Both the position numbers and the translations under genes were made by a program. Below, piece by piece: positions 703-41,554 of a DNA stretch of 48,214 nt; the first letter of the stretch is position 1, and each line of letters starts with the position of its first letter. Location of the stretch: NCBI GenBank assembly GCA_036172245.1, contig JAYWIR010000167.1, positions 1 through 48,214 on the forward strand. The letters are read 5' to 3'. Source of the DNA: Raillietiella orientalis. Lineage: Eukaryota. Under the pieces are notes generated by a model that saw only the letters and a program-made list of their open reading frames with translations, did no database searches and had not been told where the DNA came from.

Positions 703-714
703 GTCTTCCCCTTT

Positions 715-3700: not shown

Positions 3701-4351
3701 GCGAAGTGTGCTTCAACCACAACGACTTTGCGTGCTCCAGGGTAACCAAAACAAACCTCCGAAGACTAATTCAAGAAGAACAGAGTGATATCAGTGACTT
3801 CCAGGAAGCCGCCGATCGCTACGGGAGTGACCGGATGAACCTGTTAGCGATTGGCACGACGCTCTGGAGGAGTGACCTTCCTTCGGGCACCCAGGATGAC
3901 CTCCTGATGTTTTATCATGGAGGAATCCAGAGTGGGTCCCGATTGCAGGGAAGGTCGAGACTGCACAGCATGTGGAGACATGGACACGAGAGTTCACGTC
4001 TTGACGTGTCCCACATTGCTGCATGACTGGCTGATCCTGAAAAGGATCATCGGACTTACGAACAGATCCTTAATGGAGATCCTCGCCGGGATGTTTCAGG
4101 GGGATGGTAATGTTCCCTGTTACAATCCCATGGTGAGGACGACCATCGCCCTCTTCACCGCAATACTTATGCGGTGGTGGAAAATAAGGAAATCCAGAAG
4201 AGCCGCACCACCGATGGAGATCCTACAAGGGCTCCTGAAGAGGGAAATCGGCATTAGAAACTGTGGGAAAGTGCAAGCCAGGACGTACCGATTCATCCTG
4301 AAGTGGATAGAAGACGACGCCCGGGACCAAACAGTAGGAAACCCACCATGA
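715..4351 (+). pseudogene. A1 ORF2 (APE endonuclease + reverse transcriptase + C-terminal CCHC), disrupted
   Basis: EN motifs SWNVNGL, LQETH, GDLN, IDH, SDH. RT motifs WRPISILN, DMEKAFD, GVRQGDSLSP, YVDD, KYLG. C-terminal CTAC..HVLTC. In-frame stop at 2542-2544; ~16-17 nt deletion/frameshift near 3948 relative to A2/A3. Confidence 0.92.
1360..1635 (+). repeat. In-frame 138-bp (46-codon) tandem duplication inside A1 ORF2
   Basis: Units 1360-1497 (LMRLSLRTENPRRKQG...ILKATT) and 1498-1635 (LVRFSLRTENPRRRQC...ILKATT); single copy in A2 and A3. Confidence 0.9.
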
Positions 4352-4675
4352 GTGCAGAACTTGTGAGAACCCAAGGACTTCATGGTGGTAAAAAAAAGTG
4401 CCAATGTTATGGATGAGATTGTAGTGTGAATGTTTTGATAGAAAAATTTTAGAAAAATAAATTTACCCCACCCCTCGTGGGACTTGGGGAAAACTGCCGA
4501 GTCGGTGAACTTGCTTCGCGGCTCAAAGTCTTGTGCGCTCGAAAACATAATCAGTTAATTGTGCTCGTGTGTGCCCGGAGAGAAGAAGTTTTCGAGACGA
4601 AACTACAAAAGAAGAGGCAAGGAAATCGCGGCAAAACACCTGCAGTGGTTTCGTGCAGCAAGACCAGCTTCCAGG

Positions 4676-6460
4676 ATGCAGGCACCTAGAGGAGGAGTTG
4701 AGAGACCGTGGTCCCCCATGGAACCCATGGAGGTAACGTGCGGCAACGGCGAGACGGTGGCAGGCATGCCGAGGATCGCGCCCACGGCGGGCTTTGCTGC
4801 GCCGGCGGCGGCGATGCCAAGGGTCGTGCCCGCGGCGACGACGGCGTAGGTCGTGCCCACGGCGGCGACGCCGAGGACCGTGCCCGCGGCGGGGAAGGTC
4901 AAGCCTGCGGCGGCGATGCCGAGGGTGCCGCCCGCGGCGGCAACGGTGGCGACGTCCAGGGTTGCGCTCGCGGCGGCGGCGTCCCAGGAAGGACCCGTGG
5001 GCGTCCACTCGGTTGAGGGCGAGACGCCATCTTGTTCGGCTGCAGCGGCGCAGCCCTTTTCCTATGCGTCGGTGGCGGCTGGACAAGCGACTGTCCACCC
5101 ACCAAGAAAATTCTTGAAGCCGCTATGCGGTAAAGTCCAAAAGGTGGATAGGCCGATCGTGGAGTTAGGGCCGAATGTGAAGCCCATCATTTCCAAGACG
5201 GGGCTGATCAAGTTCAGTGATATCAGGGAGGTGTATCTGTCCCTCGATAAGACGGATACCAATTTTGATCGCATACAGGCGATCATACCGGCAAGCAACG
5301 TGTTCACAGTCTTCACAGACTGTGAAAAGATTAGAGAGCGATTGATCCAGATGATCAATATACAAGGGAGGATGGTTTGTGGTATTGGCGAAATGCCCTA
5401 CACAACCGTCTTTCTGAACGGCATCTCCATCCTCACTCCGCAACTAACGGTGTGGGACTTTTTGGAGCAGTATGAGGAAGTTCTGGACCTTGAATTACAG
5501 AACTTCTCTGGAAATATATTTTCTGGCGACATGATCGCTAAAATGAAGTTGAAAGAGGAAGCTGTGATCCCTGGATTAGCCGTTCTTGACGAACAATTCC
5601 AGGGAGTGAACTTGCGTTACCGGCAACAGCCGATATTCTGCACCGGGTGCAAGCAGTTCGGCCACAGGGCCGGCGCTTGCCCAACGTGTCGTTGTTTGCG
5701 CTGCAGCAAAGTAGGACATCAAGTCCGAAACTGCCCGCATCCGGAGGTGTGCTCCTTCTACAAGAAACACGGACATGCGTAATGGAGCTGTTTGGACTTT
5801 GCAAACTGCAGAAGGATTCGAGGTTTCTCTCCCGTGAGAGAGAGAAACACCAAGGAGGCGGAAAAGCCTCAGAAGGCAGGAAGGACGAAGAAGGTGGAAG
5901 ATGCCGTCCCGGTATCGGAAGACGGCTTCATACAGGTAGGGAAGAAAGGAAAGATGAGGATGCTCGTCATGGAGCAAGAAGCTCCTCTTATCCTGGTAGG
6001 TGAAGAGCAGTAAGGCGAGAAGATGGAGGCAGCGCAGGAAAACGCGGAAGAAGAAATAAATGAAGCCACTACGGTGTCGGAGGAGGCCCTGCCATCTATA
6101 GAGGAGCACGCATCAGTGTCTAATGAAGACCTAAAGGTGCACAGAGGTATTTAGCAAGGGAAAATCTTGCAGAAAATCTGGAATGCACAGGAGAAGGTTT
6201 ACAAGGTTGTGGAGGACACCGAGCGCGAGAAGCTAGAGGAACTGCTTCTCGATGTAAAGGCGAACTTCTGCGCCAAGGTCGAGATAGAAACGCTATCTCG
6301 AAAATTGATCGCGCGGGCCGAACAATCCATGGAGGAGGTTGAAGTAACCGACCTCAGCGGAACAGAGAGTGACGCCGGCAGCGAGTAGACCGCTGCTTCT
6401 TCATTGTCACGAAGAGCACGCTCTCTCAGACAGAAGAAGCTCAGGAAGGCCAAGAAATAG
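4676..6460 (+). pseudogene. A2 ORF1 (Ala/Pro repeats, three CCHC knuckles), disrupted
   Basis: ATG 4676 (MQAPRGG...); CTGCKQFGHRAGAC, CLRCSKVGHQVRNC and a degenerate third knuckle. Stops at 4847, 5780, 6011 and 6386, plus frameshifts. Confidence 0.88.
4766..4985 (+). repeat. GC-rich coding minisatellite in family A ORF1 (AAAMPRVVPA-like units)
   Basis: Repeated gcggcga(t/c)gccgagg..cgtgcccgcgg units; also present in A3 at ~36186-36410. Confidence 0.75.
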
Positions 6461-6473
6461 GTCTTCCCCTTCT

Positions 6474-9400
6474 ATGGCTCCGTCCCTATCGACCGCCAGG
6501 AGGGTGAGCATCGCCTTCTGGAATGTAAACGGTATGGTCGCCCAGAAAAAAGAGAAAGGATTGTGCGGAGCGTCGCACAACAAGACATAGTGTGCTTGCT
6601 GGAGACCCACAAGATGGATCTCGAGATTAAACAGCAAATGGAACGGCGATTCAACGGGCAGATGTTCGCCAGCGAAAGAGAACGGAACACGCAGGGTGTG
6701 GCGGTCCTAATCAAGAACAACTTGGCATCACTATTCTGGAAGTGTGCTGTCCCCAACCCGCACGAATCTTCGGCGTGCGACCGGCCTGGTCTGCTACTGT
6801 TCACCTCATCCTGGTGAACGTGCACGGGCCGCACAGGCTAAAACATCGTTGTGCGGAGGCGCTGCATGCAACATCCCGTGTAAAGGTTGCTCCCAAGAAC
6901 GTCGTCATTGTTGCTGACGATCTCATTATATCGGATGAGATCACTCACTTCCAAGTCAGAAACCGATCGATCACGTCCAGCACAGCACCGAACTTGGGAA
7001 TCGCATTCAGGGTTTTCGTAAGATTATGACCTCCGTGTCCGATCACCATCTGGTGCGGTTTTAACTGAGAACGGAGAATCTTTGGCGGAAGCAAGGCACC
7101 AGGGCGGCGATCATCAGCATGCCTGCCTGGTTCGAAACCCATCGCGGACATCATGCTGTCCTGGAGACGATTCTGAAAGCAACAACGATCCGAAGAGTAG
7201 CCGACTGGGACAGCCTGAAACAGAAAATACACCTGTTTGCAAACATGCAGTTTGAGGATAGGCGCTTGAGGCAGGAGGCGTAACGGGAGCTGAACATCCA
7301 AGATCGCTCACTCTCAAAGTACTTCGATCAGTACGAGAGTGGGTACGTCTTCAAGAAAATAAAAGGAGAAGTCGGCGTAATGGAGAAGAGAAATCTGGCA
7401 ACAGATATCTTCTGCATCCAGTGCGACGCTCAAAAGCGACAGTCGTCTGTGGACATCGTGGATGCCTTCCACAGGCATTACACGAAACACTTTAGGCGAC
7501 ATCTCTGTCGCTTTAATCAACAGGCCTTTCTGAGCTACCTCGAGAAGAGGACCGTCGATCTCCAGCGGAGCAGAGTCGAGGAGGAATTTTTCGAAGAAGA
7601 GATGGAGACTGCGTTTGCACAACTACGTAAGACGTGGCAGCGGGCCCTGACATCGTACCCATCTCTCACTATCAGCGGTACCTGCATGCCTACCTGAGTT
7701 TGTTCCACCAGTTAACCCTCTGCATCCGCGAAGAAGGAAGACTTCCACAGTCCTTATACGAGAGTCGGATAAGATTTTTGCCAAAAGGAGGCGATCTCAC
7801 GCAAGTCGCTCAATGGAGGCCAATCTCGATCCTGAACTCGGATGTCAATTGGTTGGCGAAGATCTGGTGCAACCGCTTAGGCAAGGTCATGTCGTGGCTC
7901 ATTTCACCTGTCAAAACGTGTGCAGTCCCTGGACGTCACATGTCGGACAATGTCAAGTGTGCTCAGGCCACCGTCGGAATCCGCCGATACCTCGGCGAGA
8001 ACCTGGCGTTGGTGTTCATTGACATGGAGAAGGCTTTCGACTCCATCGACCATGGGATGCTGCTGAAGGCTCTGGAGAAGCTAGGCCTTCCAGAACACTT
8101 CAGCAACTTCGTGAGGGTGGTACTCCAGAACCAGTACTGCCGAATCAAAATCAACGGCCAGGATACGGTAGCAATCTGGATGGAACGGGCAGTCCGGCAG
8201 GGCGATTCGCTAAGTCCGATGCTGTTCGTCATCAACATGAAGGCGTTGTCGTCCTTTATCCAGAAGAGCGAACGACTGCAAGGCATAACAATCGATGGCC
8301 AGCGTCTTACCCATCTGACATTCGCTGATTATCTACTCTACTTTATCAAGGGAGAGAGAAATCAATAAGCGTCTCTGGATGTGGTAGACCGGATGGATCG
8401 AGTGCTGGGTCTAAAGATCAACGCCCAGAAAAGCCAGCTCTTGCCCGTTGGAATTCTCGATCTCTCCGCTCTAGCGAGGAAAGGAATCCGTACGGTGGAC
8501 AAGGCCAAGTACCTGGATGTCTACATTGGCGACGTCTCCACGTCGAAGCTTTTGTGGACCGAGATCCTAGGGAAAACGGCCAAGGGAGCAGCCAAGTACA
8601 CCCGAGCGGACCTTAGAATGAAGCGAAAGGCCAACATATGGAACGGAGTACTCCTCCCAAAAGTGCTCTGCGGAGCAGATTTCGCAAGGATGAACAAGGA
8701 CACCACGAGGGAGTTCGAAAAGCTTCCGAGAAAAACACTGTTGGGCCACTATTGCCCAAGAGTCCGACTGAAACCCCTTTGTCGTCCCATGCAAGAAGGT
8801 TGTTCCGGTATGAAGTCGCTTGCAGACTCCATAGCAATGATGGATACGCGACACATCCTGGACATTGCCACTCACTGGAATGACTGGCCGTATGCGGGGC
8901 ACAGGAACTACGCTTTGTTGCTGAACAACTCGAACGGCATATGACTGCGCTGTTTGGGCGAACAGGCGAATCGAAAAAAATAGACCCAATCTTTACGAGG
9001 AAGCAACAGCTGGTTCGAAAGCAGCAAATCAAGATCGTTCTGAGGACTAGGGAACTCTGGCAGGTCGAGTCCATCCTGGTGATCCCTCGGATGCCTCCTG
9101 TCCCGCCGGACACGACAAGCTGGATCCACCAGCGGTCCAGAGTTACCCTTCAACGAATCCAGGAGTATAACGAGGAGGGTACCTACATCACACTCGTACA
9201 CTTAGGCATATTGAGACGATGTTACGAAGGTTTATCCACATGAATTGCGAAGTCTGGTTCAACCACAACGACTTTGTGTGGTCCAGGGTTACCAATACAA
9301 ACCTCCGAAGACTAATTCAAGAAGAAGACAGTGGTATTAGTTCCCTCCAGGAAGCTGCCGATCGCTACAAGAGTGACCGGATCAATTTGTTTGTGATTAA

Positions 9401-9917
9401 GACGACCCTCTGGAGGAGTGACCTTCCGCCGTGCACCCAGGATAACCTCCTGAAGTTTTATCATGGAGGAATCCAGAGTGGGTCCCGATTGCAGCACTAC
9501 ACCAAAAGAAGGGAAGATCGAGACTGCACAGCATGTGGAGACATCGACACGAGACTTCACGTCTTGACGTGTCCCACATTGCTGCATGACTGGCTTATCC
9601 TGAAAAGGATCATCGGACTTACGAACAGATCCGTAATGGAGATTCTCGCCGGGATGTTTCAGGGGAATGGTAATGTTCCCTGTTACAATCCCATGGTGTG
9701 GACGACCATCGCCCTCTTCATCACCGCCATACTTGTGCGGTGGTGGAAAATGAGGAAAGCCAGAAGAGCCGCACCACCGATGGAGATCCTACAAGGGCTT
9801 CTGAAGAGGGAAATCGGCATTAGAAACTGTGGGAAAGTGCAAGCCAGGACGTACCGATTCATCCTGAAGAGGATAGAAGATGACGCCCAGGACCAAACAG
9901 CAGAAAACCCACCTTGA
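6474..9917 (+). pseudogene. A2 ORF2 (EN-RT-CCHC), heavily disrupted
   Basis: Fragments 6563-6817, 7380-7697, 7634-8368 (DMEKAFD, RQGDSLSP), 8381-8944 and 9219-9917 all align to A1/A3 ORF2; several stops and frameshifts and a ~60-nt EN deletion near 6957. Confidence 0.9.
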
Positions 9918-10055
9918 GTGCAGAACTTGTGAGAACCTGAGGACTTCATAGTGGTAAAAAAAAATGCTAATGGTATGGATGAGATATTAGGGTGAATGTT
10001 TTTATAGAAAAATTTTAGAAAAATAAATTTACCCCACCCCTCGTGGGACTTGTTG

Positions 10056-11418
10056 AAAACTGCCGCTTTGGAGATAGGGCGACTGCATGCAGCGTGCACT
10101 TGCTCTTCGCTACGCTACTTTTGCGGCTTTCGTAGGCTTTGCAGAGGGGCCTGCGCTGCACTGGGGCTGTCCGGAACTCGGAAGGGAGAACGAAACGGGG
10201 AAAGAAGTCTTCACACTGATCTTCGATCTTCCTGTTTTCCTACCTTTCCTTCCAGGGTGTTACGGGGATTTGCTGGTTCCTAACTCGGAGAGGTGCCTGC
10301 GAGTTCGGCAGCAAGGGATAGCACGGTACGCGTCAAACCCTTGCGCACCTTTTTGAATGGCTTCCTTGCCGTGACTTTGCCCTTTCGGGGAGTTGTGGGC
10401 GGGGTTGCTTTCTTTTCATCCGCAAATCGCTCGTTGTTTTTTCCGAGTTCTTGCGGAAGACGTTTTCTATTTGCCGCTGCTGCTTTTTATGCAGTGGTTT
10501 TTTGAACCCGAAGAATTTCCGCTGCGGATGTTTTTCTTCCATGTACCGGGCACTTTTTGATTTCGTGCCCGGAATTTTTGCAATAGCGGCATCTTGGAGA
10601 GGGCCGCTGTTTAATTCGGTGCCCATCCTTGTCGCACTGCTCGCACGCTTGAGTCTGGCCTATGAACCACAGGTGAACGACCGTGCCGTTCATCTGCAAC
10701 TGCCAAGGCACAACACGCCTGTTCGAGAGGGTGATCCACGCGGAAGCATGTCCGATGTTGACAGAGGAGAAATCCTTCAAAGGGTACGGCATCTTTCACA
10801 GGGCGTGGACGGTGGCGAACTTCGCCTGCACGCTTACAACATCGCGGTCGGAGATTTCCGGTTCGATGTCTCACAATTGAACGACAAAAGAGTCGTCCAT
10901 CGCGGTAGGTAGGACATCCTTTCCATTGATAGTCAACGGCGTAAGGAGAAGGCGCTGCACAATTGCTGCGTTCTTGCACCGAATCTTCGTATATTTCATC
11001 CTGCCAGCAGGCATTATGGCAAGGAGTTCTTCCTCGGGAACGCCGATCCGTACGAGCTCATCATTGAGCTCACGACCGATTCTGCAGTTAAGGGGCCCAC
11101 TGACCTTATGACGGAGTGCATTCATGTATCCTGATGACACATATGCCTGGAACTCCGCATCGCAGGGTCCTGGTCTTTGGGAGGTAACGGCGGCGTAACT
11201 CCTCACCGGGGGCAAGGAAACCATTACGGAGAATGCATCCACTTCAAGTTTAGCTGAAGTGCTTTTAGTGGCTTGCTCTTTCACACTATCCTGTGTACTA
11301 ACTTTGTTGCACTATGCTACTTGGCAGATTCCATAGCAACACACAAGTGCGAGCGAAAACGCGGGCACAAAGTTGCCCGATCGTTGGCGCGGATAGACGC
11401 AGATACACGTCTGCTCTG
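10056..11418 (-). mobile_element. LINE 5' fragment D- (5' UTR + degenerate B/E-type ORF1), cut in the ORF1 tail by the A1/A2 insertion
   Basis: EFQAYVSSGYMNALRHKVSG... and VVHLWFIGQTQACEQCDKDGHRIK..CRYCKNSGHEIKKC match B1 ORF1; 5' terminal motif CAGAGCAGACGTG at 11418-11406. Confidence 0.85.
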
Positions 11419-11420
11419 TA

Positions 11421-14400
11421 CAAACGCAGGAGAGCGTACGCATCTCCGGAGGGCGGCTGTGGTAACGGTGTGTAACATCGAGAAGTTATGATGCCGCCTA
11501 CCTGCTTCGGCCCGCCATCGAGGCCGCCGCCCGTTGAGTGCGGTTCGACGATCACGGTCGTGTCGGCCAGCTGAATCTCAGTTGGTCCGACTCGATCGAC
11601 ATGAACGTCATGAACGTTTGCTCCAAGAGCGGAGCGCACCTGACGAAAAGGAGGGCCAGGGAAGAATTTTTTTTTGCCCTCCATGGCGACTGGTTGAGCG
11701 AGGCAGGCGTGCGGAATGTTCGTCTGGTTTCAGGCGATTTTAACTTTCGTCTGAATCCGGATGGGTCGAATCCCGAGCGCGACCTGGTCAACGAGGTATT
11801 CGAGGCAGTGCACACTTGTAATTTCTTGGCCAGTGTACCAGGGCTGGAGGACAACATCGATCACGTGTTTCTCGACGAGCACCAGTGCACTCGTGTGGGC
11901 TGGCGCTGCAAGTTACCGTACGAGATCTCCGACCATCGACCAATCGTGAGTGAAATTCATCCGCGCGACAGGGGCCCACCCTCGTCAGCGTGGCGTTTGC
12001 CAGAGGACTGGCTGAAGCTCCCGGACGCTACGGAAGATCTCCGCACGTTCATACGGAGCTTTAGGATGCAGACACTCCACGATTGGGACCGCTTCAAAGG
12101 GTCGGTCCAGGAGTTCTGCGAACAGTTCGCTCTGCTCCGCCTACCTGCAAGATTTGGGTTCGGGGTACGTTACGAACGAGCCTATCTGCAGGCTCGCCGT
12201 TTCGCCAGGACCCCGCGACATCCGCATGCTGGCGGAATACAAAGCGGGAGCCGAGAGGCAAGCCTGGCAGTCTGGATCGGCCAGATTGCTGGACGATAAG
12301 GGCCAGGAGCATTCGGCACTCGCTCAGATCCGCGGTCCGCTGCGGCGTTTTTACTCTTCCCTGTACCCAAGAACGCCTCCGGAGCGGGGTTTCTCACGAC
12401 TCCTGCTTCCGGAATTCGCTCTTGCGATCGAAGAAGAGGAGAAAAAGTCCCTCGACGAGCCTTTCACGATGGGCAAGATCCTCTCGGCCATCGGAAAGGT
12501 CAAGATGCGCAAGGCTCCAGGAAAGGACGGCCTGTTAGCGGAGTTTTATTAAACTTTTGCGGCTGAGCTTACCCCTTCTGGTACAGCAACTCACCTTGCT
12601 GATACGCGAGACAGGTAACGTTCCCGCCTCGTTTCGTTCGGCAAAGGTGCGGCTTCTCCCTAAGGGAGGAGATCTGAGGAGCATGAACAAGTGGCGTCCT
12701 ATCATAATAGTGAATGCGGATGCCAGGTTGATAGCTAACGTTTGGGCTGAGCGCTTGGAAGGGGTTGCAAACACCTTCATCAGCCTGGAACAGACGTATG
12801 GTGTTCCGGGGCGAGGCATCAAGGCGAACATGTTCCACGTTTCCACCTGGCTAGAGCTCTAACACGAAAAAAGCTTGATGCACACCGGGAATTCCGGTGA
12901 GTCCGTCAGCCATGCGACGGATGGTCGGGTGGGGGAAGGAGGCCTTGCGGTCGCAATCGACTTGCGGAAAGCATTCGATTGCGTCGACCAGAATCTCCTA
13001 CTGGAGCTTTTAGAAGTCTTGGGCTTCCCGTCCTCATTATTAACCTATCTGCGCTCTAGCTAGCGCGATTCGCAAATCAATGTTACTATCAGCAAGCATA
13101 CTGTTCACGGCGTGCCGGTGCGAGGTATGATCAGGTAGGGAGACAACCTGAGCCCCTTGCTCTTCAGTACCTACTTTGAGTTGGTACTGAGAGCGTACAG
13201 GGAAACTCTGGCGCACCTGCCGCATGAATGCGCCGGAACGCCTGCGGTTTCAGTATATGCGGACGACCTTCTGCTACTGTTCCCTATGTCCACCCCTACT
13301 TCGGCGGTGAAGAAGTTCTTCGACCTGCTAAATCGAGGAACCGGGCTTACGGTGAACAGGGCGAAGTCGTCCGTGATGCCAGTTGGTGCGGCGTGGGCAA
13401 AGCAGCAGGACTGGGTCCGTTTGGGGATGCACACGTTGAGGTACCTCAAGTACCTTGGTGTGCCGTTGGGGGATTTATCCCCTGCGGAAGCGTGGTCCGG
13501 CCGCCTTCAAAAAGTAGAGACGGCAATCAACCCATTCCGTGGCGGCAGGTTTTTCCTGCCTGAACGGGCTGCGGTTTGGAAGATGTTCGCGGCTCCTCTC
13601 CTCCGTTTTCTGCTTTTTGTTTGCCCCCCAACAAAGAGCATCAGAAAGCGTACGAAGCACCTCCTCCGTATCGCCCTTTGGGGCAACGGGAGGGCCCGAG
13701 TGCGCTTAAAGGACTTGTGCGCTCCGCGTCGAGACGGTGGTCTCGGCCTCCTGACATTAGAGCGGCTGGAGCTGCAGCTGCAGTTCCGGATTTTGGCGCT
13801 TGTGTTGGAGTTGTGGTGCACCTGTTGGTGCGTCCCTGCACGTCTCCTTCAGCAAGCCACCGCCAAGACGGGAATTACATCGTTTCTTGCACTCCATCGA
13901 AGCCGCATTAACGGATGTGGGCTTCAGCTACGGAGGGTGGCTGCGCTGGCAAGGAAAAATCAAGGATGGATCACCTGTGTCCCCGCGAACGGTAGTGCCT
14001 AATTGCAGGTAACCGTTAGCACGTGGATACAGTTCGGCATGCTACCCTCATAACAGAAACGAAGGTTCCAGTTAGGGTGTTACAGAAGTTGCACACTTCG
14101 TGAGATCCTGGAGGATCCTAAGAAGAGAGCGTGGTCAGGAAGAACCCCCCTCTCTGCTGCGCTGGACTCCCTATTGAAACATAAGGACAGCGATGTTGCG
14201 GCTTAGTAAGAGCTTACAATGAAAATCTCCAAGAAGGAGAAGAAGCAGAGAGAGTGGAAGACGGGCTAGCTAACTGATGCTTTTACCCCGAGAACGCCTC
14301 CTAATGGACTTCTGCGCTGGCAAGCGCTGATGGATGTTCCGATTGAACATTTGAAGTGGCGCCCGGTTCTTATGAACACTTCCATCCTCCTCCTAAAACG

Positions 14401-15073
14401 GCAAGAGTCGGCATTCCTGTTTCAACACTGAGGACTCCCCTGCAACGCCCGTCGACATCGCTGGACCTAAGAAGCGGTGGATCCCAATTGTGTAAGGTGC
14501 GGGGAACGGGAGTCCCTCCCCCACCTCCCAGTGGATTGTGTTGCCCTTCGGCCCCTTTAGTTCCGCTTTGCCGCGGCCATCGTTATCCCTTGCGGCAACC
14601 CCAGGGACGCACTAAAAGCCTTCTTCGTTGCCGAAGCCCTCTGGCCAGCGTTCTGGATAGCAGCCTTGTGCTGCCTTCGTGGGATCGTCGCCCCATGGAG
14701 CACGGCGCCGACGGGAGAACCTAGCGATCAAAACGCCATCCAGTGCGCCTCTTAATTCTTAAGGAGGGCGTCGCAATGGCCCCACCTGGATGTTCACAAC
14801 AAACAAGAGCTTCCCAGCATTCTGAAAGGAATGATGCGGCCCCAGCAGCATCAGTGATCCCTTCCCGTTCCCTCCCACCATTTGTTTCTTCTTGTTTAGT
14901 TTTTAGTTTTTCCCCTTTCTTCTAGTGCCTTGGTGGAACGTACCGGTCTAGAAACCAATGAATTGGCAGGCTCCGTGGTTCTTTGCTTCTGGCTGGAGCA
15001 TTGCCACAGCCATAAATAATTTCTTTGTAAAGTTTATTTTTTTAATAAACGACCCGGAGAAATCCGGGTGAAA
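11421..15073 (+). mobile_element. 5'-truncated LINE D+ (C-like ORF2 pseudogene 11421-14857, 3' UTR, AATAAA+hairpin end)
   Basis: Starts inside EN (ISGGRLW*RC..VRFDDHGRVGQL, GDFN, SDH); RT motifs KAPGKDG, WRPI, DLRKAFD, YADD; many stops. Ends AATAAA 15044-15049 + ACCCGGA-GAAA-TCCGGGT. Confidence 0.9.
15033..15073 (+). terminator. 3'-terminal signal of D+: inverted TTTATT..AATAAA plus 7-bp GAAA-tetraloop hairpin
   Basis: ACCCGGA(15052-58) GAAA TCCGGGT(15063-69); same layout at the B1, C1 and F ends. Confidence 0.7.
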
Positions 15074-15074
15074 A

Positions 15075-18738: not shown

Positions 18739-18801
18739 GATGAAGCGGATGAAAGCACGGAGACGAGAGCGAAGAAAAACACGTCCGCACTCGATTGAAA
18801 T

Positions 18802-18844
18802 TTATCACCCGGTCACGCCGGGGCGTTTATTAATAATAATAAAC
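18802..18844 (-). terminator. 3'-terminal signal of B1: AATAAA + CCCGG/CCGGG hairpin
   Basis: Directly precedes the TSD; no poly(A) tail. Confidence 0.72.
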
Positions 18845-19114
18845 TGGTCAGGGACAATGTCCTTAACCAACAGAACGACAGAGAACATAGAAAAATTACC
18901 GGCACGCAGGCCTGGTAAACAAACCGCTCGCAGCGTGGGAGGAATGAGGGGAAACAAACAAAAATCAAAAACTGGAGGGAAGGGTAACGGGTTTTTGGTT
19001 AGGCTCCGTACTCACGGGGATTTAAACGATGAGCACCTAAACTGTTCCGGAGCCTATGGGGACGCGGGTGTAAAAAGAAAATACAAAAATAGTTTATGGA
19101 GGGTAGGGCAATGA

Positions 19115-22100
19115 TCACCGGGTTGGCCGCTGCTGAGCGTGTGTAAACCGGCGGTGTATTGCGGCGAGATTCCTCTTTGTCTCCTCTGTCAAATGAGGCC
19201 ATCTAGATGATGCTCCCATGTAGAAGGATGCTTTGCTTATTACCTCTTGGTGCTGTCCGTTGATTACCAACGCCTGGCGGACGGAAACTATCGCGCGTAT
19301 GCAACCGATGGTTGCAATCCTTGCGCTTAGTGAAAGCCCGCTCGGCGTGAAGAATCGTCGCAGCAAGTCTCTTGCGGTGTCCACGGGATGCAATAGTGCT
19401 GTTGCCAGCCTACGCCACAGTCCTTGTAGGACACCGCAGTCCAGAAGTAGGTGCGGAATCGACTCCGTCGATCCGCACCGAACGCAGTTCGCAGACGCAA
19501 GTCCCCCGGAGTCACGATGCCAACGCTCGTTGGACTGAAAACCCCAGTGAACGAAAAGCAGCACGGCTTGTTTCCAAGCAAGGGGGAGCAGCGAACTGTC
19601 CATACACTGTGCAGGGACTACAAGTTCTTCGGGGGTGACAGCAAGTTCTTTTGCCCACCGGAGGAGTCCCTTTGCAGTAACACGAGGAGTGGCGGCGTCC
19701 GCCAACTCACTTGTCTTCCAGGTGCCAAGGAGTTTGGTTTTTCCCGCTATCGTGCAGGAAACCTCCCACCTCGCCGGTTGGTAACTGTGGTTTCTTGCCC
19801 TGAGGGCAGACAGCGCGGCGGCAAGAGGCGTGGCAGCCAGGGTAGAAAACTTCACCTCGTCCTGCAGTACTTCTTCCAAGGATCGTGGAAAAAATTGGCG
19901 CAGGGGGCGAAGATCTTCAGGGCGTATTCCTTGGAACGCCGCCCAGGATTCAACAGACTCCTGCCGCCAAGCTTCAAAGTTCATTGGGCGGCAGGAGATC
20001 CACGAGTGTGCTTCCAGAAGTGCGGTCAACTGCCGCAATGGAAACCCGAAACCCCGCTTTCTGTATTGAGTGCCCGGCAGAAGCGAGAGAAATCCTCCGC
20101 TGCCGGCGCATCTCCGCAGGAGAATGCGAGCTGGCACACACAGGGGGGATGTCCATAGCTGGGCACACAGTGCCAGCAGTCGGAACTGCACCTGCAGTCC
20201 GATTCGCTCCATTGTCAGGATACCCAAACCAGCATCCCGACGCGGAGCTGACAAATCTTTAAGGCGGATCCTGGATCTCGCCGGACCCCAGAGAGCGTTC
20301 CTGAGCAGGCGCTCAGCCCGCTGTTTCGCCGCATAGGGGGGGTCCAAAACAAAAAACAGGGGACGGAGGAGGGGGGCCACAAAGGTGTTCCAAATAGTCG
20401 CCCGTTCCTGCAAGGTAAACTTGCCGTTAAAGAACGGGCTGATGGCCAACTCTGCTTTCTGAAGACAGTCCGCCCACGCTTCGGCTGCGCCGAAAGCGCC
20501 CAACGGAACGCCAAGGTACTTAAAGTACCCGCCCGTGGGGATCTCCAGGCGGATCCAGTCGGACTGTCCCTCCCACGACGTACCCACAGGAACGACCACT
20601 CTCTTCTCTCTGTTCACGCTCACGCCCGCTCCCCGACGAATCAGGTCGAAGAAATCCTCGACACTGGACGCCGGGGTGGACATGGGGAGCAGAAGAAGCA
20701 GGTCATCAGCGTAGGCAGCCACGGCAGGCGTTCCCGGGCAGGAGCTTGGCAAGTGAGACAGCGTCAGCCTGTATGCTCTTAGCACCAACTCAAAGAAGAT
20801 GCTGAAGAGCAACGGGCTTAAGCTGTCGCCCTGTCGGATGCCCCTACGAACGGGAATACCATACACGCGGCAGCCGCTAAAAGTGATGCAGGTTAGCGCG
20901 TGGCGCCAGCACGCGCGCAAATACAGCAGGAGTTGCGCCGGGAACCCAAGGCGTTCCATAAGCTCCAAGAGGAGCTTCTGGTTTACGCAGTCGAACGCCT
21001 TGTGAAGATCGACCGCGACCGCCAAGGCACCTGGCGTTCCCTCCTGCCGTCGGCGCCTGTTCTTTTTGCCTGCAGCAGTGACTTTCGCAGCAGCCTGGCT
21101 TTGCTGCGCCACAACTTCCTGCAGCTGCATCCATGTACGCGCGAAAAGGATGTTCGCCTCCTTGGATCGTCCCGGAACCGCGTAGGTTTGTTCCGGGCTC
21201 ACCACAGATTCCGCGATTCTTCCTAACCGCGCGACCCACAGCTTGGAAAACAACTTGACGTCCGAGTTCACCAAGGTGATCGGACGCCAGTTGTTAAGTT
21301 GGCGCAAGTCTCCGCCTTTCGGCAGGAGACGCACCTTCGCTGAGCGGAAGGAATCTGGGACATTCCCGGATTCACTCATCAGCGTCGCGAGTTTCAGCAT
21401 CAAGGGAATGAGCTCCACTGCAAAGCACTGATAAAACTCTGCAGGGAGCCCATCCTCGCCTGGCGCCTTTCGTCTCTTCAGCCCAGCGATGGCGGATGAA
21501 AATTCATCCGCCGTGAAGGGCTCGTCGAGACGTTCTCGTTCCTCCTCGTTGACAACACGAGCATCCTGAGATAGGAGTATCTCAGAAAGAATATCCTCCG
21601 TCGGGGATTCCGCGTAGAGCGAGGAGTAGTAGCGTCTCACAATGCGGCGTACTTCGGCTGGGGCCGAACATTCCTGGCCCTTGTCGTCCAACAGGCATGC
21701 TGCTCCGGACTGCCAGACCTGGCGCTCGGCCCTCGCCTTGTACTCTGCGAGACGCCCGACATTTGCGCTTCTCGAAAACGTGCGGGCCTGCAGAAAGTCT
21801 CTACTGTTGGCCACGCCCTCTCCGAAACCGCCTGGAAGCCGGTGCAAGGGGAATTGGCAGCAGAACTCGCGGACAGATCTTTTGACATCGTCCCAGTCCG
21901 CAAGTTCTTGAATGGCAAAGCCTCGGAGGTATCCACGTAGATGCTCCGCAGCCTCCGGTTGGCTAAGCCAATCTGCCTGCATCCTCCAGTTTTGCAACGG
22001 AGGCCCCCTGCCTGGCGGAAGGATCTCAAACTCCAACCTGTGGTGGTCAGAAAGCCTAGTCAACAATCTTCCTCTCCTACCCACACGCGAATGCAGGTTT

Positions 22101-22708
22101 TTATCGAGGAAAACGTGATCGAGCGATCTTTCCATTCCAGGTTCGCTGACCATCAAGTTGGCGGCGTGCACGGACGCGCACATCTCGATGGGCAGCGCGC
22201 GTTCCCTCGGGCGGCTCCAATCGTCGGAGAGCAGGCGGACGTTGAAGTCCCCAGCGACGAGGTGCGCCACTTGGAAACCGGAGTTGTTGAGCCAGTGGCT
22301 CTGCACCTCACCAAAGAAAGCTACTCTTTCTTCGAGGTAGCGAGAGCCACTCGGCGCGTAGACGTTCGTAACGACGAGGTCGATGGACTCGGACCACTTG
22401 ATGACAAGCTGGCCTATCCGTCCGTCGTCATCGAAACGAACACCACGCACCGCTTCCGCCATTCTTCCTCTTATGAGGAACGCGACGCCGCACGTGTGTG
22501 CGCCGCCGCACCGCCAATGTAGCGTTCCGCCTGCGTGCTCCTCGATTTCGGCCGCCTGCTCGTCGGAGATTACGTGAATCTCCTGCAGGAGCGCGAGGTC
22601 GAAGGGGCGCAGGGCGTTGGCTACTAATCGCCTCTTCTCGTCGTTCTGTAGTCCGTTCACGTTCCAACACGTTACGGACAGACAACGAGAAGACGCGATT
22701 CCCCGCAT
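19115..22708 (-). CDS. B1 ORF2: APE endonuclease + reverse transcriptase + C-terminal CCHC finger (1197 aa)
   Basis: WNVNGL, LQEIH, VYAP, GDFN, LDH, SDH; KAPGEDG, WRPITLVNSD, DLHKAFD, GIRQGDSLSP, YADD, KYLG; CVRC...HLLLDC; no stops. Confidence 0.96.
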   Translation of the reverse strand: MRGIASSRCLSVTCWNVNGLQNDEKRRLVANALRPFDLALLQEIHVISDEQAAEIEEHAGGTLHWRCGGAHTCGVAFLIRGRMAEAVRGVRFDDDGRIGQLVIKWSESIDLVVTNVYAPSGSRYLEERVAFFGEVQSHWLNNSGFQVAHLVAGDFNVRLLSDDWSRPRERALPIEMCASVHAANLMVSEPGMERSLDHVFLDKNLHSRVGRRGRLLTRLSDHHRLEFEILPPGRGPPLQNWRMQADWLSQPEAAEHLRGYLRGFAIQELADWDDVKRSVREFCCQFPLHRLPGGFGEGVANSRDFLQARTFSRSANVGRLAEYKARAERQVWQSGAACLLDDKGQECSAPAEVRRIVRRYYSSLYAESPTEDILSEILLSQDARVVNEEERERLDEPFTADEFSSAIAGLKRRKAPGEDGLPAEFYQCFAVELIPLMLKLATLMSESGNVPDSFRSAKVRLLPKGGDLRQLNNWRPITLVNSDVKLFSKLWVARLGRIAESVVSPEQTYAVPGRSKEANILFARTWMQLQEVVAQQSQAAAKVTAAGKKNRRRRQEGTPGALAVAVDLHKAFDCVNQKLLLELMERLGFPAQLLLYLRACWRHALTCITFSGCRVYGIPVRRGIRQGDSLSPLLFSIFFELVLRAYRLTLSHLPSSCPGTPAVAAYADDLLLLLPMSTPASSVEDFFDLIRRGAGVSVNREKRVVVPVGTSWEGQSDWIRLEIPTGGYFKYLGVPLGAFGAAEAWADCLQKAELAISPFFNGKFTLQERATIWNTFVAPLLRPLFFVLDPPYAAKQRAERLLRNALWGPARSRIRLKDLSAPRRDAGLGILTMERIGLQVQFRLLALCAQLWTSPLCVPARILLRRCAGSGGFLSLLPGTQYRKRGFGFPLRQLTALLEAHSWISCRPMNFEAWRQESVESWAAFQGIRPEDLRPLRQFFPRSLEEVLQDEVKFSTLAATPLAAALSALRARNHSYQPARWEVSCTIAGKTKLLGTWKTSELADAATPRVTAKGLLRWAKELAVTPEELVVPAQCMDSSLLPLAWKQAVLLFVHWGFQSNERWHRDSGGLASANCVRCGSTESIPHLLLDCGVLQGLWRRLATALLHPVDTARDLLRRFFTPSGLSLSARIATIGCIRAIVSVRQALVINGQHQEVISKASFYMGASSRWPHLTEETKRNLAAIHRRFTHAQQRPTR

Positions 22709-24654
22709 TACTGCTGGGAAGGTGGCGGCTTTTTACTCGCTTTATCCGGCGAGCAGACGGCGAGCAGCACGACTGGCTGGAGGGGACGGTCGCCACCGTC
22801 TGTTGTCGTGCTGCATGCATGTACTGCCTCCACGCCAGGCTTAACCCCGTCGGGTTTCGTGGAGACTTCGCGTGGCTTCGCGGCGAGCGTTGCCTGGCTG
22901 CCTACTATTAATCGGTGCGCACACGCTTTCGAACGAGTTGTCCTCGTCTCGGTGATCGGAACGGCATCCATTTCGGAGTCCGACCGGCGCATGTTCGATC
23001 GAGTTTCGGCCTTCCGCGAAGTAGTGACAGGTTCTGCCGGATTGACAGCTGTCCTGTTGTCTTTTTCCGTCTCCAGAGCATCGCTTTTGGTGACGGCTGC
23101 TTTCCCGGCGCGCGCGTTTTCAGCGTGCTCACGCGCAGTTGCGCGAGGGACCTTTGCTGAAGTCTTCTTTACTTCATTACGGTTCCTCACTTCGCGTGGC
23201 GCCGTAAATGGAGATTGTGCTCCTTGGCCATCTTTGAAGCCGTCCGCGTCTTTGGACGGGAGCACTTTCGATGGCTCCGACACGCTCGTCATGGACGCTG
23301 CCTTCGGAAGGGCTTTTAATCCCTTCGTTGGCATGGCATCCGCGCCAGTCGAGAGCTTGCTCTCCGACTGCGACGGCGTGAGAGTTTTCTCCGCTTTCCC
23401 GGTGTTGGGTCGCGACGCGGATTTTTTTTTGCCGACTTTCGAAGTCGACACGGCACAACTTTTCTTACCCGATTTGGGCTTCTCAGCCACTGCAGGAGGT
23501 GTAGGAATGGATCTGACGGTACTGGAAGTGTCCTTACCGCCGTTGTCCATTGACGTCCCCGCCGGTTGCTCGAACTCCGAAAGAGCCGGGTGTGCTTGGG
23601 AAGGACAGCTATTGCGCCTAGGGGGACTTAGCATTTCCCCGGATTCCCCGCACCCTTTCTTTTGCGGCTCCCCTGCCGCGAGAAAGGACGCGCAGGCCTT
23701 CGCGTGCGAGGTTTCCTGCTGCTTTGGGGCGACATTCCGCCTCGCGTTTTTTCGGAATTTCTGCCGTGGGGTCTCCAGGTTTTTCGCAGATTTTTTCTTT
23801 TTATCCGCGCTTTGTTTTCTAAGATGGAGCTCCGCGGCTGCCTTTTTTCGCAAAAGATCCGGGCAATTTTTCAATTGGTGCCCGGATAGTTTGCAATAAC
23901 GGCATTTTCCAGAGGGGCATTTATCCAAACAATGCCCCTCCTTCCCGCATTGCTCGCACGTTTTTACTTTGCCCACGAACCACAGGTGAACGACCGTGTC
24001 TTTCACCTGTAGTTTGGTGGGCAGCAGACGGCGGTCCGGCATTGTAAGCCGGACTCCAGCGACTCCGCTGTGTATGGACGGGAAGTCCTTGAAGTTGCTA
24101 CGCACCCTCCACAGCGCATGGACCGTGGCGAATTTCGCCAACGCGTTCCGAATATCAGTATCGGAGACTTCCGACTCGATGTCGAAAATCTCCGCCACAA
24201 ATGAGTCGTCCATGGCGGACGGGAAGACCTTCTGGCCACGGATCGACAACGGGGTGCGCAGCAAGCGTTGCACAAGTGCAGCGTCTTTGCAACGCACCTT
24301 GAAATAGCCCATGTCTTTTACGGGCATACTGGCGAGAAGGTCCTCCTCCCGCACGCCAACACGGGTCAGTTCATCGTTGAACTGATTCCCGTCGCGCGCA
24401 GAAAGAAACCCACTCACCTTATATCGGAGAGCAGGTCTATAGCCTTCGGCTACGTATGCCCGCAACTCCGACTCGTCGAGTGGCTTCCCTTTGACGGCTG
24501 CTGTGGCAGCAAGGTCAGCAAAACTCCTCTCCATTGGCGAGAATGACGAAGTGGAGGCGGCCGTCGGTTCCGCGATTGCAGATCCATATGCTGTTCCTGC
24601 AACTTCAGTAGCTTCAAGTTGGGTCGACATCGTCGTCAAAATGTACGACGCCAA
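22708..24654 (-). CDS. B1 ORF1: gag-like nucleic-acid-binding protein with two CCHC zinc knuckles and a long basic low-complexity tail
   Basis: CEQCGKEGHCLDKC and CRYCKLSGHQLKNC; uninterrupted frame. The annotated start 24654 is TTG; the first ATG is nine codons in (MSTQL...). Confidence 0.9.
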   Translation of the reverse strand: MASYILTTMSTQLEATEVAGTAYGSAIAEPTAASTSSFSPMERSFADLAATAAVKGKPLDESELRAYVAEGYRPALRYKVSGFLSARDGNQFNDELTRVGVREEDLLASMPVKDMGYFKVRCKDAALVQRLLRTPLSIRGQKVFPSAMDDSFVAEIFDIESEVSDTDIRNALAKFATVHALWRVRSNFKDFPSIHSGVAGVRLTMPDRRLLPTKLQVKDTVVHLWFVGKVKTCEQCGKEGHCLDKCPSGKCRYCKLSGHQLKNCPDLLRKKAAAELHLRKQSADKKKKSAKNLETPRQKFRKNARRNVAPKQQETSHAKACASFLAAGEPQKKGCGESGEMLSPPRRNSCPSQAHPALSEFEQPAGTSMDNGGKDTSSTVRSIPTPPAVAEKPKSGKKSCAVSTSKVGKKKSASRPNTGKAEKTLTPSQSESKLSTGADAMPTKGLKALPKAASMTSVSEPSKVLPSKDADGFKDGQGAQSPFTAPREVRNRNEVKKTSAKVPRATAREHAENARAGKAAVTKSDALETEKDNRTAVNPAEPVTTSRKAETRSNMRRSDSEMDAVPITETRTTRSKACAHRLIVGSQATLAAKPREVSTKPDGVKPGVEAVHACSTTTDGGDRPLQPVVLLAVCSPDKASKKPPPSQQ

Positions 24655-24695
24655 GATGAAGCGGATGAAAGCACGGAGACGAGAGCGAAGAAAAA

Positions 24696-24708
24696 CACGT
24701 CCGCACTC
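24696..24708 (-). promoter_or_regulatory. Conserved 5'-terminal motif (GAGWGC)RGACGTG, putative DPE-like internal Pol II promoter element
   Basis: Present at the 5' ends of B1, B2 (18780-18792), C2 (27132-27144), D- (11406-11418) and E (43024-43036), while the rest of the UTRs diverge. Confidence 0.55.
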
Positions 24709-27144
24709 GATTGAAATCTCCCGCTATCAGGTGAGCCTTTCGCACATTGGTATCCGCAATCCAGTCGCGCTTCAGGGTTTCCAGCAGCCTGGTGCGGTCG
24801 CGGTAAACCTGTTTGCCGCTGGGGCCATACACGTTTGTGACGATAAGGTCGATCGAGTCGGACCAGCTGAGAATCCGCTGACCGATCCGACCGTCGTCAT
24901 CAAACCGCACGCCATTTACGGCAGCGTCGATGGCCGGCTTCACGATGAACGCGACCTCGCAGGTGTTGCGGAGGCCGCATCGCCAATACAGCCGACCCCC
25001 CGCGATCGTCTCGATTTCCTGGGCGTCTGCCGCGGTGATCACGTGGATCTCCTGGAGCAGCGCCAGGTCGAGCTCACGCAGATTGTCGGCTGTATCTCGC
25101 CTGTTGCCGTCGTCGCGCAGCCCGTTGACGTTCCAACAGGCCGCGCGAATCCGACGGCGACTGGCGAGCCCAGGTGTTAGTCCAGGAAAAACGGCGATGC
25201 GGCGTCCGCCACCTGCTGGGGTGGGACGCTAGGTGGAGGGGGAGGGGGGACAGGTACTGAAGGCACCTTTTCCTCCTCCTCCATCGGTGCCGGCGCTTCG
25301 GCCGGATCACCCGCAGGTGGAGTCGCGCCTACCTGTTCGCCTTCCTCCATGGGTTCGGGCTGCTCAGGTTTCGCGACTGCAGGGAGGACTTCACCCCCCT
25401 GCTCTCCCTCCTCCATGGGGATGGCCGACTCGACGGCTTCCGAGCGTGGGTATTCCCCCTCCGGGATTCCCACGCTGCCGCTTCCTTCCGGTTTCTCCTC
25501 CTCGCTGGTGGAGGGGAGGCGCCTCCTGGGTTTCTGGGACTTGCGTCCCGACTTCCTGGTGGGTGCCTCCTAGGAGGAGGATCCGCTTCCGGCCCCCAAG
25601 TCGCACTCACCAGCGGGGGCCTTCTTCGTCGGAGCCGACCTGCGTACGCCCTTGCGCGACGGGGTTTCGCGCTCGGCGAGCGTTGCTGCGAGCACCTCCG
25701 CCGCTTTCTCGAAGGCCGCGTCTTCGCCAGCGGCGACCGTTGCCGCGGGCTGCTCCGCGACCTTATCGAGCGCGGTCACATCGTTGACGGCGAACGTTGC
25801 CGAGGGCTCCTCCGCGACTTTATCGAGCGCGGAGTCATGGCTGTCGGCGCGCGAGTCTCGCGTCTCACCCTCTAAACGTAGATTGGGCTCGTCCTCGCGA
25901 GTATTCATCGCGTCCGCATCAGCTGTTCCGCGAACATTGCCGCGGGCGACTCGGCAGGAACGGCTAAGCTTTCCAGTGCCACAGAGCATTCGCGCAGTTT
26001 ATTTTTTGAAAGCGGCGCGGATTTTTTCTTGTTGCCGGCAGTTTTCTTCTCCGAATTTTCTTCTATCATCACTTTCTTCTTTTTCTCTTTTCTGGCCTGA
26101 ACCAGCTGCCAAGCCTCCTCCATTCCCGCGTCCACGGGAGCTATATGCTCCGACGTCTGTACGGGAGGAAGGGAGGCTGGCAGTTGGGAACAGCCATTTT
26201 CGCGAGCTGGTCTTTCTACCAGCTTTCCACGTTTTCCCTGCGCCTTTTTGGCGGCAGGGGGCACCGGGGTGGGGCGCTTGGGGCACACGCGCCGAACAAG
26301 ACTTTTTTCGCCGCATAGGTGGCACACAATGTTCGGGCACCTTTTTCGTAGATGCCCTACTGCATTTCAGTAGCCACAAAATTGGCGTTTCCCCACGTAC
26401 CAGAGGTCCACCGCTTCTTGGCAGACCTTCAGATAGTGGGGAAGCGCACCACGCTCTTTTACGGTGATACGCGCGGCAGCTTGATCTCCAAAAAGGCTAT
26501 TGTAGCCTTGGAAAATCGTGGACTTCGGCCACAACGCGTGCACTTCTCCGTGCTTTTGTTGCTGTTCTCGAACCGCTGACCTTGTCATGCGACTGGAGAT
26601 CCCAGTGAGATGGACCACCACCGAGCGGTCCATCGTTATCGGCAAGATCTTCCGACCATCAACGATCAGCGGGTCGGTGATCAGGTGTCGGGCCAAGGTG
26701 ATATCCTTGCATACCACCTCGACCCGCTGCCCGGCGCTGAGGACGCAGAGGCCGTCGAGATCTTTTTCAAAAATATTAACGTTCTGCAGCGCCTTCGTAA
26801 AGGCGCGTGCAGTTCGCCCATCGAAAAGGTTGCCTACCTTGTAGACTAGCGAGGGTTTATACACCGCTTTCTTGTAGGCTTCCATCTCGGCCATGGCTTC
26901 CACGCTAGGCGCGGCCACCATGGCGCTCCATGACCTCGGCGTCGCCAGGGACGATTCCGGGGCGGATGTCCCTGATCCAGTAGGCTGTGGGTACGAACAA
27001 GCCTCCATCACGCCTACTTCCATCGCGGTGTCCTCTGGCAACGCTGCCATCAGACACCGACGATGTGCACGCACAAATTACTCAAGAAGAAAAAACACTC
27101 GCTTTGCCACGCAGACGGAGCGCAGGAAAAGCACGTCCGCTCTC
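24709..27144 (-). mobile_element. LINE copy C2 5' part (5' UTR, degenerate ORF1 ~27050-25177, EN N-terminus), interrupted at the EN GDFN motif by B1/B2
   Basis: EN fragment matches C1 30495-30963 up to AGDFN; knuckles CGY*NAVGHLRKRC and CHLCGEKSLVRRVC; 5' end GAGAGCGGACGTG. Confidence 0.88.
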
Positions 27145-27162: not shown

Positions 27163-27200
27163 TTATCACCCGGGTACGCCCGGGGCGTTTATTAATAAAC
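27163..27200 (-). terminator. 3'-terminal signal of C1: palindromic GTTTATTAATAAAC + CCCGGG-CGTA-CCCGGG hairpin
   Basis: Read directly; same spacing as B1 and D+. Confidence 0.72.
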
Positions 27201-35830: not shown

Positions 35831-36015
35831 CCTTGCGCATGGGCGGTATCGCCGCCGCTGAACGAAAGGGAGGCGTGATTATTGCTAGTTTAAAACTATA
35901 CCCAATACCCCGCCAAGGCAGTGTTTAAAACCACTGCCAAGGCAATTTCTGAGTGCCCTGAGAGGGAAAGTGTTTGAGTGAACGCCAGTGTGGAAAGAGT
36001 GCAACCGGGGACCAT

Positions 36016-36034
36016 CAGCAGCAGCAGCAGCAGC
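36016..36034 (+). repeat. (CAG)6 microsatellite in the A3 5' UTR
   Basis: cagcagcagcagcagcagc read directly. Confidence 0.8.
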
Positions 36035-36094
36035 GCCGAGAAGTCCACGGTGGAAAACCTGCAGTCGTCCCGAGCAGCCGGAACAGCTGCCAGG

Positions 36095-41418: not shown

Positions 41419-41554
41419 AAAGCAGAACTCCAGTGCAACCCAAGGACCCCCAAGTGCAAAATGTTTGTATTGAGTGAATGAGAGTGCGAATGTAAATATT
41501 GTATTTTTATAGAAAAATAAACTTACCATATCCCTTGTGGGACTTAGGGAAACT

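Follow-up and report, generated by a model that had tools for sequence, protein, structure and literature searches.

The choice of template and of first base by LINE reverse transcriptases is understood for few elements only, and L1 is the textbook case of a relaxed, poly(A)-dependent element. A poly(A) ending is not universal within the L1 clade: among the 15 green-algal L1 families tabulated by Ohshima 2012 (PMC3472496, Table 1), two end in (A)n, eight in other repeats and five in no repeat. The same paper describes an L1 lineage in which the last 45 nt are conserved and contain a hairpin with compensatory changes, as well as a stringent green-algal L1. In the L2 clade, a terminal stem-loop is required in cis in UnaL2, ZfL2-1 and ZfL2-2 (Kajikawa and Okada 2002, as cited in PMC3472496; Hayashi 2014, PMC4176376); Hayashi 2014 further reports that recognition by the L2 ORF2 protein is general for the stem but specific for the loop. 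A conserved 3' stem-loop has been argued even for human L1 (Grechishnikova and Poptsova 2016, PMC5135761). In SART1, a stem-loop of the 3' UTR fixes the start point of reverse transcription.

We analyzed a stretch of 48,214 nt from a eukaryotic genome with a G+C content of ~55% (hereafter the window), which proved to be a 48-kb nest of non-LTR retrotransposons. Several of its LINEs share a conserved terminal module of ~40 nt, end at exact junctions without a poly(A) tail and encode L1-like proteins, and one of them is flanked by a target-site duplication. The described elements that they most resemble are the stringent L1s of PMC3472496, namely monocot group 1a (LINE1-1_ZM with ZmSINE2/3) and Chlamydomonas L1-1_CR, which likewise have an L1-like ORF2. 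In those elements the last ~45 nt are conserved (divergence 0.144 versus 0.570, compared with identities of 73-80% versus 24-63% here), and in both cases a hairpin lies within the conserved end. The published elements differ in that they end in poly(A), have tail-sharing SINE partners and vary their stems with compensatory changes, whereas the elements described here carry no tail, have no such partner in 48 kb and keep their stems nearly invariant. The green-algal families without poly(A) resemble the present elements in belonging to the L1 clade and not ending in poly(A), but the table of PMC3472496 gives counts only and the AATAAA-hairpin module is not found in its main text.

The general recognition of stems and specific recognition of loops in L2 matches the conserved stems and subfamily-specific loops seen here; L2, however, is of a different clade and ends in (TGTAA)n for slippage, whereas the present elements end in a single UGAUAA without repeats and have AAUAAA upstream. 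SART1 offers a parallel in the fixed start point, but is telomere-specific and both keeps and needs its poly(A). The combination of a stem that includes AAUAAA, a GC hairpin and an exact end without a tail was not found in the literature examined, and a search of the literature text for the motif strings returned only unrelated, primer-like matches. Stringent L1 ends are nevertheless already in print for plants and algae, and the present case is a variant of them, not new in kind. As the idea has been published for plant and algal L1s, the principle is not new, and what is gained is a further, tidy example. A preliminary description of this DNA had proposed an "unusual priming mode for this clade"; this was overstated, given that PMC3472496 contains both stringent and poly(A)-less L1 families.

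Elements of the window and their class

The LINEs of the window fall into two groups, which we term family A and the hairpin superfamily. The nest is rearranged and several of the elements are cut; D+, C1 and F are 5'-truncated. The elements are as follows:

1 to 4499, plus strand: A1, family A
4634 to 10065, plus strand: A2, family A
~11420 down to 10427 or lower, minus strand: G, an ORF1-bearing piece
~11421 to 15074, plus strand: D+, hairpin superfamily
18793 down to 15075, minus strand: B2, hairpin superfamily
18802 to 24709, minus strand: B1, a full-length LINE with ORF1 and ORF2 both open
~27144 down to 24710, minus strand: E, hairpin superfamily
~31523 down to 27163, minus strand: C1, hairpin superfamily
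35139 down to ~31631, minus strand: H, hairpin superfamily
36054 to ~41559, plus strand: A3, family A
~43036 down to 42206, minus strand: I, an ORF1-bearing piece
43042 to 45482, plus strand: F, hairpin superfamily

B1 encodes an ORF1 of 648 aa and an ORF2 of 1197 aa. Pfam identifies Exo_endo_phos (residues 15-222) and RVT_1 (463-734) in ORF2, together with a weak match to zf-RVT that is below the cut-off (E 0.0059); RNase H was sought in the same Pfam search and not found. ORF1 gave no Pfam match, and by eye contains two CCHC knuckles. The best solved relative of the B1 ORF2 is human L1 ORF2p (E 9.5e-47, versus 1.1e-14 for the best R2 protein), and the family A ORF2 ranks the two in the same order (3.2e-13 versus 2e-09). 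When the B1 ORF2 was compared with 5.8 billion proteins, 28 matches passed, with identities of 22-31%. Many of these relatives carry zf-RVT, a domain of plant-type L1s, and the few that are named belong to land plants and to a charophyte alga.

Based on the best solved relative, the zf-RVT-bearing relatives and the CCHC knuckles of ORF1, the elements appear to be L1-like, a placement (L1/Tx1) derived from best matches rather than from a tree. Other traits of the L1 clade are also found: an endonuclease and reverse transcriptase without RNase H (the C-terminal Cys/His match being weak only), 5' truncation, apparent 5' inversion and a target-site duplication, the last in B1 only. Where the elements depart from the clade is in their ends, as none of the insertions finishes in poly(A) (0/4 superfamily termini and 0/3 family A termini).

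The terminal module and the ends of the insertions

The module is common to D+, B1 and C1, and a decayed copy is present in F. It comprises an AU inverted repeat that holds AATAAA, a GC hairpin of 5-7 bp and a final TGATAA or TGAAAA:

15032 to 15074, plus strand: D+ module, GTTTATTTTTTTAATAAACGACCCGGAGAAATCCGGGTGAAAA
15032 to 15038 and 15044 to 15050, plus strand: AU repeat of D+, with AATAAA at 15044-15049
15052 to 15069, plus strand: GC hairpin of D+ (7 bp, loop GAAA), with the last bases TGAAAA running to 15074
18844 down to 18802, minus strand: B1 module, GTTTATTATTATTAATAAACGCCCCGGCGTGACCGGGTGATAA, with an AU inverted repeat, AATAAA at 18831-18826, a GC hairpin at 18822-18808 (5 bp, loop CGTGA) and TGATAA at 18807-18802
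27200 down to 27163, minus strand: C1 module, GTTTATTAATAAACGCCCCGGGCGTACCCGGGTGATAA, with the perfect palindrome GTTTATTAATAAAC, a GC hairpin at 27184-27169 (6 bp, loop CGTA) and TGATAA at 27168-27163
45441 to 45482, plus strand: decayed F module, GTTGATATTATTAATAAACTTCCCAACGCATCTAGGTAATAA, with a broken GC stem and an end that reads TAATAA

The end sequences that the preliminary description gave for D+, B1 and C1 are read identically in the window, and the decayed version that it placed at 45453-45482 in F is present there. The D+ module, reported at 15033-15073, was rightly located, but its true extent is 15032-15074. The description made no mention of the AU inverted repeat GTTTATT...AATAAAC, of which AATAAAC forms the 3' arm in D+, B1 and C1. 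AATAAA is invariant in these three elements and lies 24-25 nt from the element end, while the distance from the end of the stem to the end of the element is 6 nt in all four termini. As had been claimed, no terminus carries a tail: an A-run follows none of the four. Tandem repeats of the kind that close L2, CR1, RTE and I elements are likewise absent from the very end, which consists of one TGATAA or TGAAAA. The 3' UTRs that the modules close extend 205-313 nt past an ORF2 stop.

Motif searches in the window recover the same termini. The 14-mer AATAAACGNCCCGG, which spans AATAAA and the 5' arm, has five matches at up to two mismatches; three are exact, at 15044-15057 (plus strand), 18818-18831 (minus) and 27180-27193 (minus), and the other two (2601 and 8149, two mismatches each) are within the ORF2 of family A elements and not at termini. 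For the 11-mer CCGGGTGAWAA, which spans the 3' arm and tail, three of 15 matches at up to two mismatches are exact; since chance would give 22.4 matches on average, more than the 15 found, only the exact ones count. The 48-kb window contains no SINE-like partner with the same tail and no copy of the tail outside LINE ends. No Rfam family, including the histone-type 3' stem-loop, reaches its gathering score at the termini, where the best matches are at chance level (E 0.11-9.9). A single metagenome match to the terminal motif was discarded as chance, as it lies in an apparent bacterial coding region without a surrounding LINE. In viral contigs, no locus was detected either by protein or by motif.

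The module is conserved amid sequence that has otherwise diverged, which is the pattern that characterizes stringent LINEs. Identity among D+, B1 and C1 is 73-80% over the last 45 nt but drops to 24-45% in the remaining 3' UTR and to 55-63% in the DNA of the 3' half of ORF2; the ORF2 proteins of the module-bearing subfamilies are 44-71% identical to that of B1. In the three-way alignment, 20 of the last 31 columns are identical (with the C1 row 2 nt short), against a mean of 13.0 (sd 5.1) and a maximum of 27, inside ORF2, for all 31-column windows. The tail is thus the best conserved non-coding part of the elements, not their most conserved stretch. The upstream 3' UTRs had been called "not alignable", which agrees with their low identity but passes over two common features: a pyrimidine-rich stretch behind the stop in all four, and a motif centred on CTGCGT in three of the four. 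RIP or CpG decay was considered as a source of the changes in F and rejected, since there is no strong signature of either and the CpG observed/expected ratio of the window is 1.01.

For B1, an 8-bp target-site duplication defines the end to the exact base:

24710 to 24717, minus strand: upstream copy of ATTTCAAT, followed directly by the B1 5' end
18794 to 18801, minus strand: downstream copy of ATTTCAAT, followed directly by the B2 5' end

The preliminary description had presented B1 as intact, with the duplication directly after its end, and this is borne out: the ORFs of 648 and 1197 aa are open and ATTTCAAT adjoins TGATAA. The upstream copy is native sequence of E, within the codons of the endonuclease motif GDFN, as can be concluded from the fact that C1, a relative of E, reads through the same octamer. 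ATTTCAAT occurs at only four places in the window, of which two are the copies of the B1 duplication and one is the C1 homologue. Outside the window, a contig from sequencing run X1 that is 98% like the B1 3' region shows a B-type end followed by ATTTCAAT (place 18793) and then continues into E/C-type ORF2 (matched by eye); it represents the other side of the same target of B1. A second X1 flank behind a B-type end (place 18800) is of different sequence and also lacks an A-run. Both flanks come from the 8 loose ends listed, out of 155. Among the matches listed, there are also X1 contigs that are alike over the last 30 nt only and then diverge (place 18831), which may indicate that the tail is shared by one more subfamily. 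Runs X2 and X3 yielded only three and four short pieces.

The remaining superfamily ends are defined by homology. D+ is followed by antisense B2 sequence at 15075, and its end is set at 15074 because the homology of B2 to B1 starts at 15075. The end of C1, placed by homology to the B1 end, is followed by CGCC, and the 5' motif of E comes 18 nt later. Target-site duplications of D+ and C1 were not found in the window. The targets behind the ends are neither A-rich nor T-rich, which makes priming on poly(A) by a T-rich nick unlikely. Comparison of the RNA end with the target primers by eye revealed no convincing microhomology. In total, these observations are based on four termini of the hairpin superfamily and three of family A.

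Family A provides a second set of LINEs with this layout, though its ORF2 is only ~25-29% identical to that of B1. Its ends consist of AATAAA, four bases, an imperfect GC hairpin and then AAAACTGCCG (AAACTTAGCG in A3):

4456 to 4499, plus strand: A1 terminus, with AATAAA at 4456-4461, an imperfect GC hairpin at 4466-4489 and the end AAAACTGCCG
10022 to 10065, plus strand: A2 terminus, with the layout of A1 and a damaged outer stem
41516 to 41559, plus strand: A3 terminus, with the layout of A1 in more diverged form; placed by eye, BLAST homology stopping earlier

The homology of A1 and A2 stops at 4499 and 10065, respectively. The three flanks behind these ends are all different and none begins with an A-run (0/3). 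Fold z-scores are -2.00 for the A1 terminus and -0.31 for that of A3. As family A also combines AATAAA with a hairpin and lacks a tail, the layout is not a quirk of one family.

Two further observations concern family A. An X1 contig of 595 nt matches 10016-10365 of the window, the A2 terminus together with 300 nt of flank, at ~88% identity. The unit of A end plus flank is therefore found at another place in that genome, a duplicated segment and a repeated target being the two options. At the other end, A2 and A3 can be aligned only from ~20 nt before the first ATG; the sequences upstream of this (4500-4633 versus 35967-36053) are wholly different, and the 5' leaders of family A are therefore variable.

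Predicted fold and function of the module

The module is predicted to fold into two adjacent hairpins, an AU stem with AAUAAAC as its 3' arm and a GC stem. Compared with shuffled sequences, the fold has a z-score of -4.39 in D+ (0/200 shuffles as good), -2.44 in B1 (5/200), -0.87 in C1 (37/200, for a 50-nt window that stops 2 nt short of the end) and +0.14 in the decayed F (97/200). The hairpin had been described as "covarying", which claims too much: in the four-row alignment, one of seven pairs is changed on both sides, a result that 256 of 500 shuffles reach, and RNAalifold keeps only four pairs. The pair concerned is the innermost, which is A-U in D+, G-C in C1 and C/A in B1. Since the stems are otherwise identical, a conserved sequence or DNA palindrome is indistinguishable from a conserved RNA fold by this means. 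The loops vary in sequence and length (GAAA, CGUGA, CGUA) on arms that are constant, and the D+ arms, CCCGGA and TCCGGG, have kept inverted symmetry and not direct-repeat symmetry. At the level of sequence, a paired element is favored by the inverted symmetry in D+ and by the differing loops on constant arms. The last six bases could alternatively form a helix with UUAUUA just before AAUAAA (in D+, UGAAAA with UUUUUA), which is possible in all four modules and includes one A-U to U-A swap in D+. This helix was rejected, being weaker than the two-hairpin fold by 2.4-7.6 kcal/mol in D+, B1 and C1 and by 3.0 in F.

We propose, with a probability of about 0.55, that the module is a stringent-type 3' cis signal by which the start of reverse transcription is fixed. 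Such a function fits the known stringent recognition by some LINEs of their own RNA end, not a new priming mode. In the RNA, the module would begin with an AU stem containing AAUAAA, followed after 2-3 nt by a GC hairpin and finally by a tail of 6 nt, UGA(U/A)AA. The usual distance from AATAAA to the cleavage site is 24-25 nt; as AATAAA is found 24-25 nt before the end of these elements, the host machinery probably cuts the transcript at or near the last base of the element. The ORF2 protein would then grip the hairpin and begin target-primed reverse transcription at a fixed base, any poly(A) being left uncopied. A start set in this way by the RNA module, and not through annealing to a tail, is suggested by the constant end, by the lack of A-runs and by the non-T-rich targets. 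Recognition of the stem may be general and that of the loop specific to the subfamily, with which the common stem and differing loops would be compatible. The preliminary description had likewise proposed hairpin recognition and a fixed start. Its case retains the tail-less constant ends and the conserved module, which match the pattern expected, but its covariation argument carries no weight. The last two to four A's (TGATAA, TGAAAA) could represent the first bases of a tail.

These A's lead to the main alternative, namely that the module is a mere host-type 3' processing signal. In this case AAUAAA and a structured spacer would fix cleavage, the RNA would be polyadenylated, reverse transcription would begin in the first one to four A's and the hairpin would not be a protein site. 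The invariance of AATAAA in D+, B1 and C1, and its distance of 24-25 nt from their ends, are consistent with this, as are the 2-4 A's in which these ends and that of F finish; a shared host requirement also predicts the occurrence of AATAAA plus hairpin in two families that are ~25% identical in ORF2. We nevertheless consider a processing signal alone unlikely. A random start within a tail should produce A-runs of variable length, whereas all four ends have the same length, and the target sites are not T-rich. Family A, moreover, ends in CTGCCG or TTAGCG rather than in A, at 38 nt behind AATAAA, and the conservation of GTTTATT, the complement of AATAAAC, would be superfluous for a plain signal.

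A more far-reaching interpretation, which we hold to be quite doubtful, is that two long-diverged L1-like families in one genome have both given up poly(A) priming, with AAUAAA and the terminal hairpin defining their end. The end of the RNA would then be either tail-less, protected by its hairpin in the manner of a histone mRNA, or furnished with a tail that is actively skipped. If true, tail-independent and structure-guided initiation would be native to a whole branch of the L1 group, and stringent recognition would gain support as the ancestral state of L1.

It is improbable that the inverted repeats act on DNA or cDNA instead, whether in second-strand priming, in target joining or as a protein-binding palindrome (CCCGGG). 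Both C1 arms do read CCCGGG, GTTTATTAATAAAC is a perfect DNA palindrome, and covariation cannot separate the RNA and DNA readings; however, D+ has retained inverted symmetry (CCCGGA / TCCGGG) and not direct-repeat symmetry, and no LINE step is known to need such a DNA palindrome. Least credible of all is a module without function, its sequence inherited or swapped by template switching and not yet decayed and its tails lost after insertion or in assembly: only a handful of copies are in evidence and they lie in a rearranged nest with several cut elements, but the tail is 73-80% identical while ORF2 DNA is at 55-63% and the adjoining UTR at 24-45%, the B1 junction is exact with the duplication on both sides, and independent X1 contigs show the same end among the matches listed.

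As a young and intact element with an exact tail-less end, B1 would offer a clean system in which to ask whether stringent recognition, the function that we favor for the module, is ancestral in the L1 group. B1 is also suited to studying how stem and loop share the work of recognition, since its stem is common to its sister subfamilies and its loop is its own.

Arrangement of the nest

The nest preserves several 5' ends and junctions. A conserved terminal motif, GAGWGCGGACGTG with a T-rich run behind it, marks 5' ends; on the minus strand it occurs without mismatch in B1 (24708), B2 (18792) and E (27144), and with two mismatches each in I (43036) and G (11418). In the minus-strand pieces G and I, the 5' end is complete and ORF1 is retained in part. 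Each piece forms a head-to-head pair with a plus-strand partner that is 5'-truncated, G with D+ (~11420) and I with F (~43040), a layout that twin priming (5' inversion) of one insertion would be expected to produce.

Head-to-tail junctions between members of the same family are found three times, at A1-A2, B1-B2 and C1-E. The spacing is 134 nt between A1 and A2 (4499/4634) and 18 nt between C1 and E (27163/27144), and nothing but the 8-bp duplication separates B1 from B2 (18802/18793). B1 and B2 differ by 181 substitutions (107 transitions and 74 transversions) and no indels over 3727 nt; this pair arose either by two insertions into one target or by duplication of the unit.

Two insertions interrupt the host element within codons of its most conserved ORF2 motifs. 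B1 is inserted in the endonuclease motif GDFN of E (24710-24717) and D+ in the reverse-transcriptase motif KAFD of B2 (15075), which may reflect chance or target preference.

H, on the minus strand, has a perfect 10-bp hairpin (31595-31620) that begins ~10 nt past its ORF2 stop and consists of GGTGGACCAC, a 6-nt loop and GTGGTCCACC. A 7-bp hairpin comes after it, and the AATAAA module is absent. The homology of C1 to E begins ~100 nt beyond these hairpins, and the 3' end of H itself may have been lost or may be of a different kind.

Lastly, a full-length U4 snRNA is located inside the LINE nest at 35829-35966 on the plus strand (Rfam RF00015, 91.9 bits, model positions 1-138). It sits 87 nt upstream of position 36054, where A3 becomes alignable with A2. 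It could belong to a U4-LINE chimera that arose through template switching, or it could be a genuine gene that has a LINE as its neighbor.
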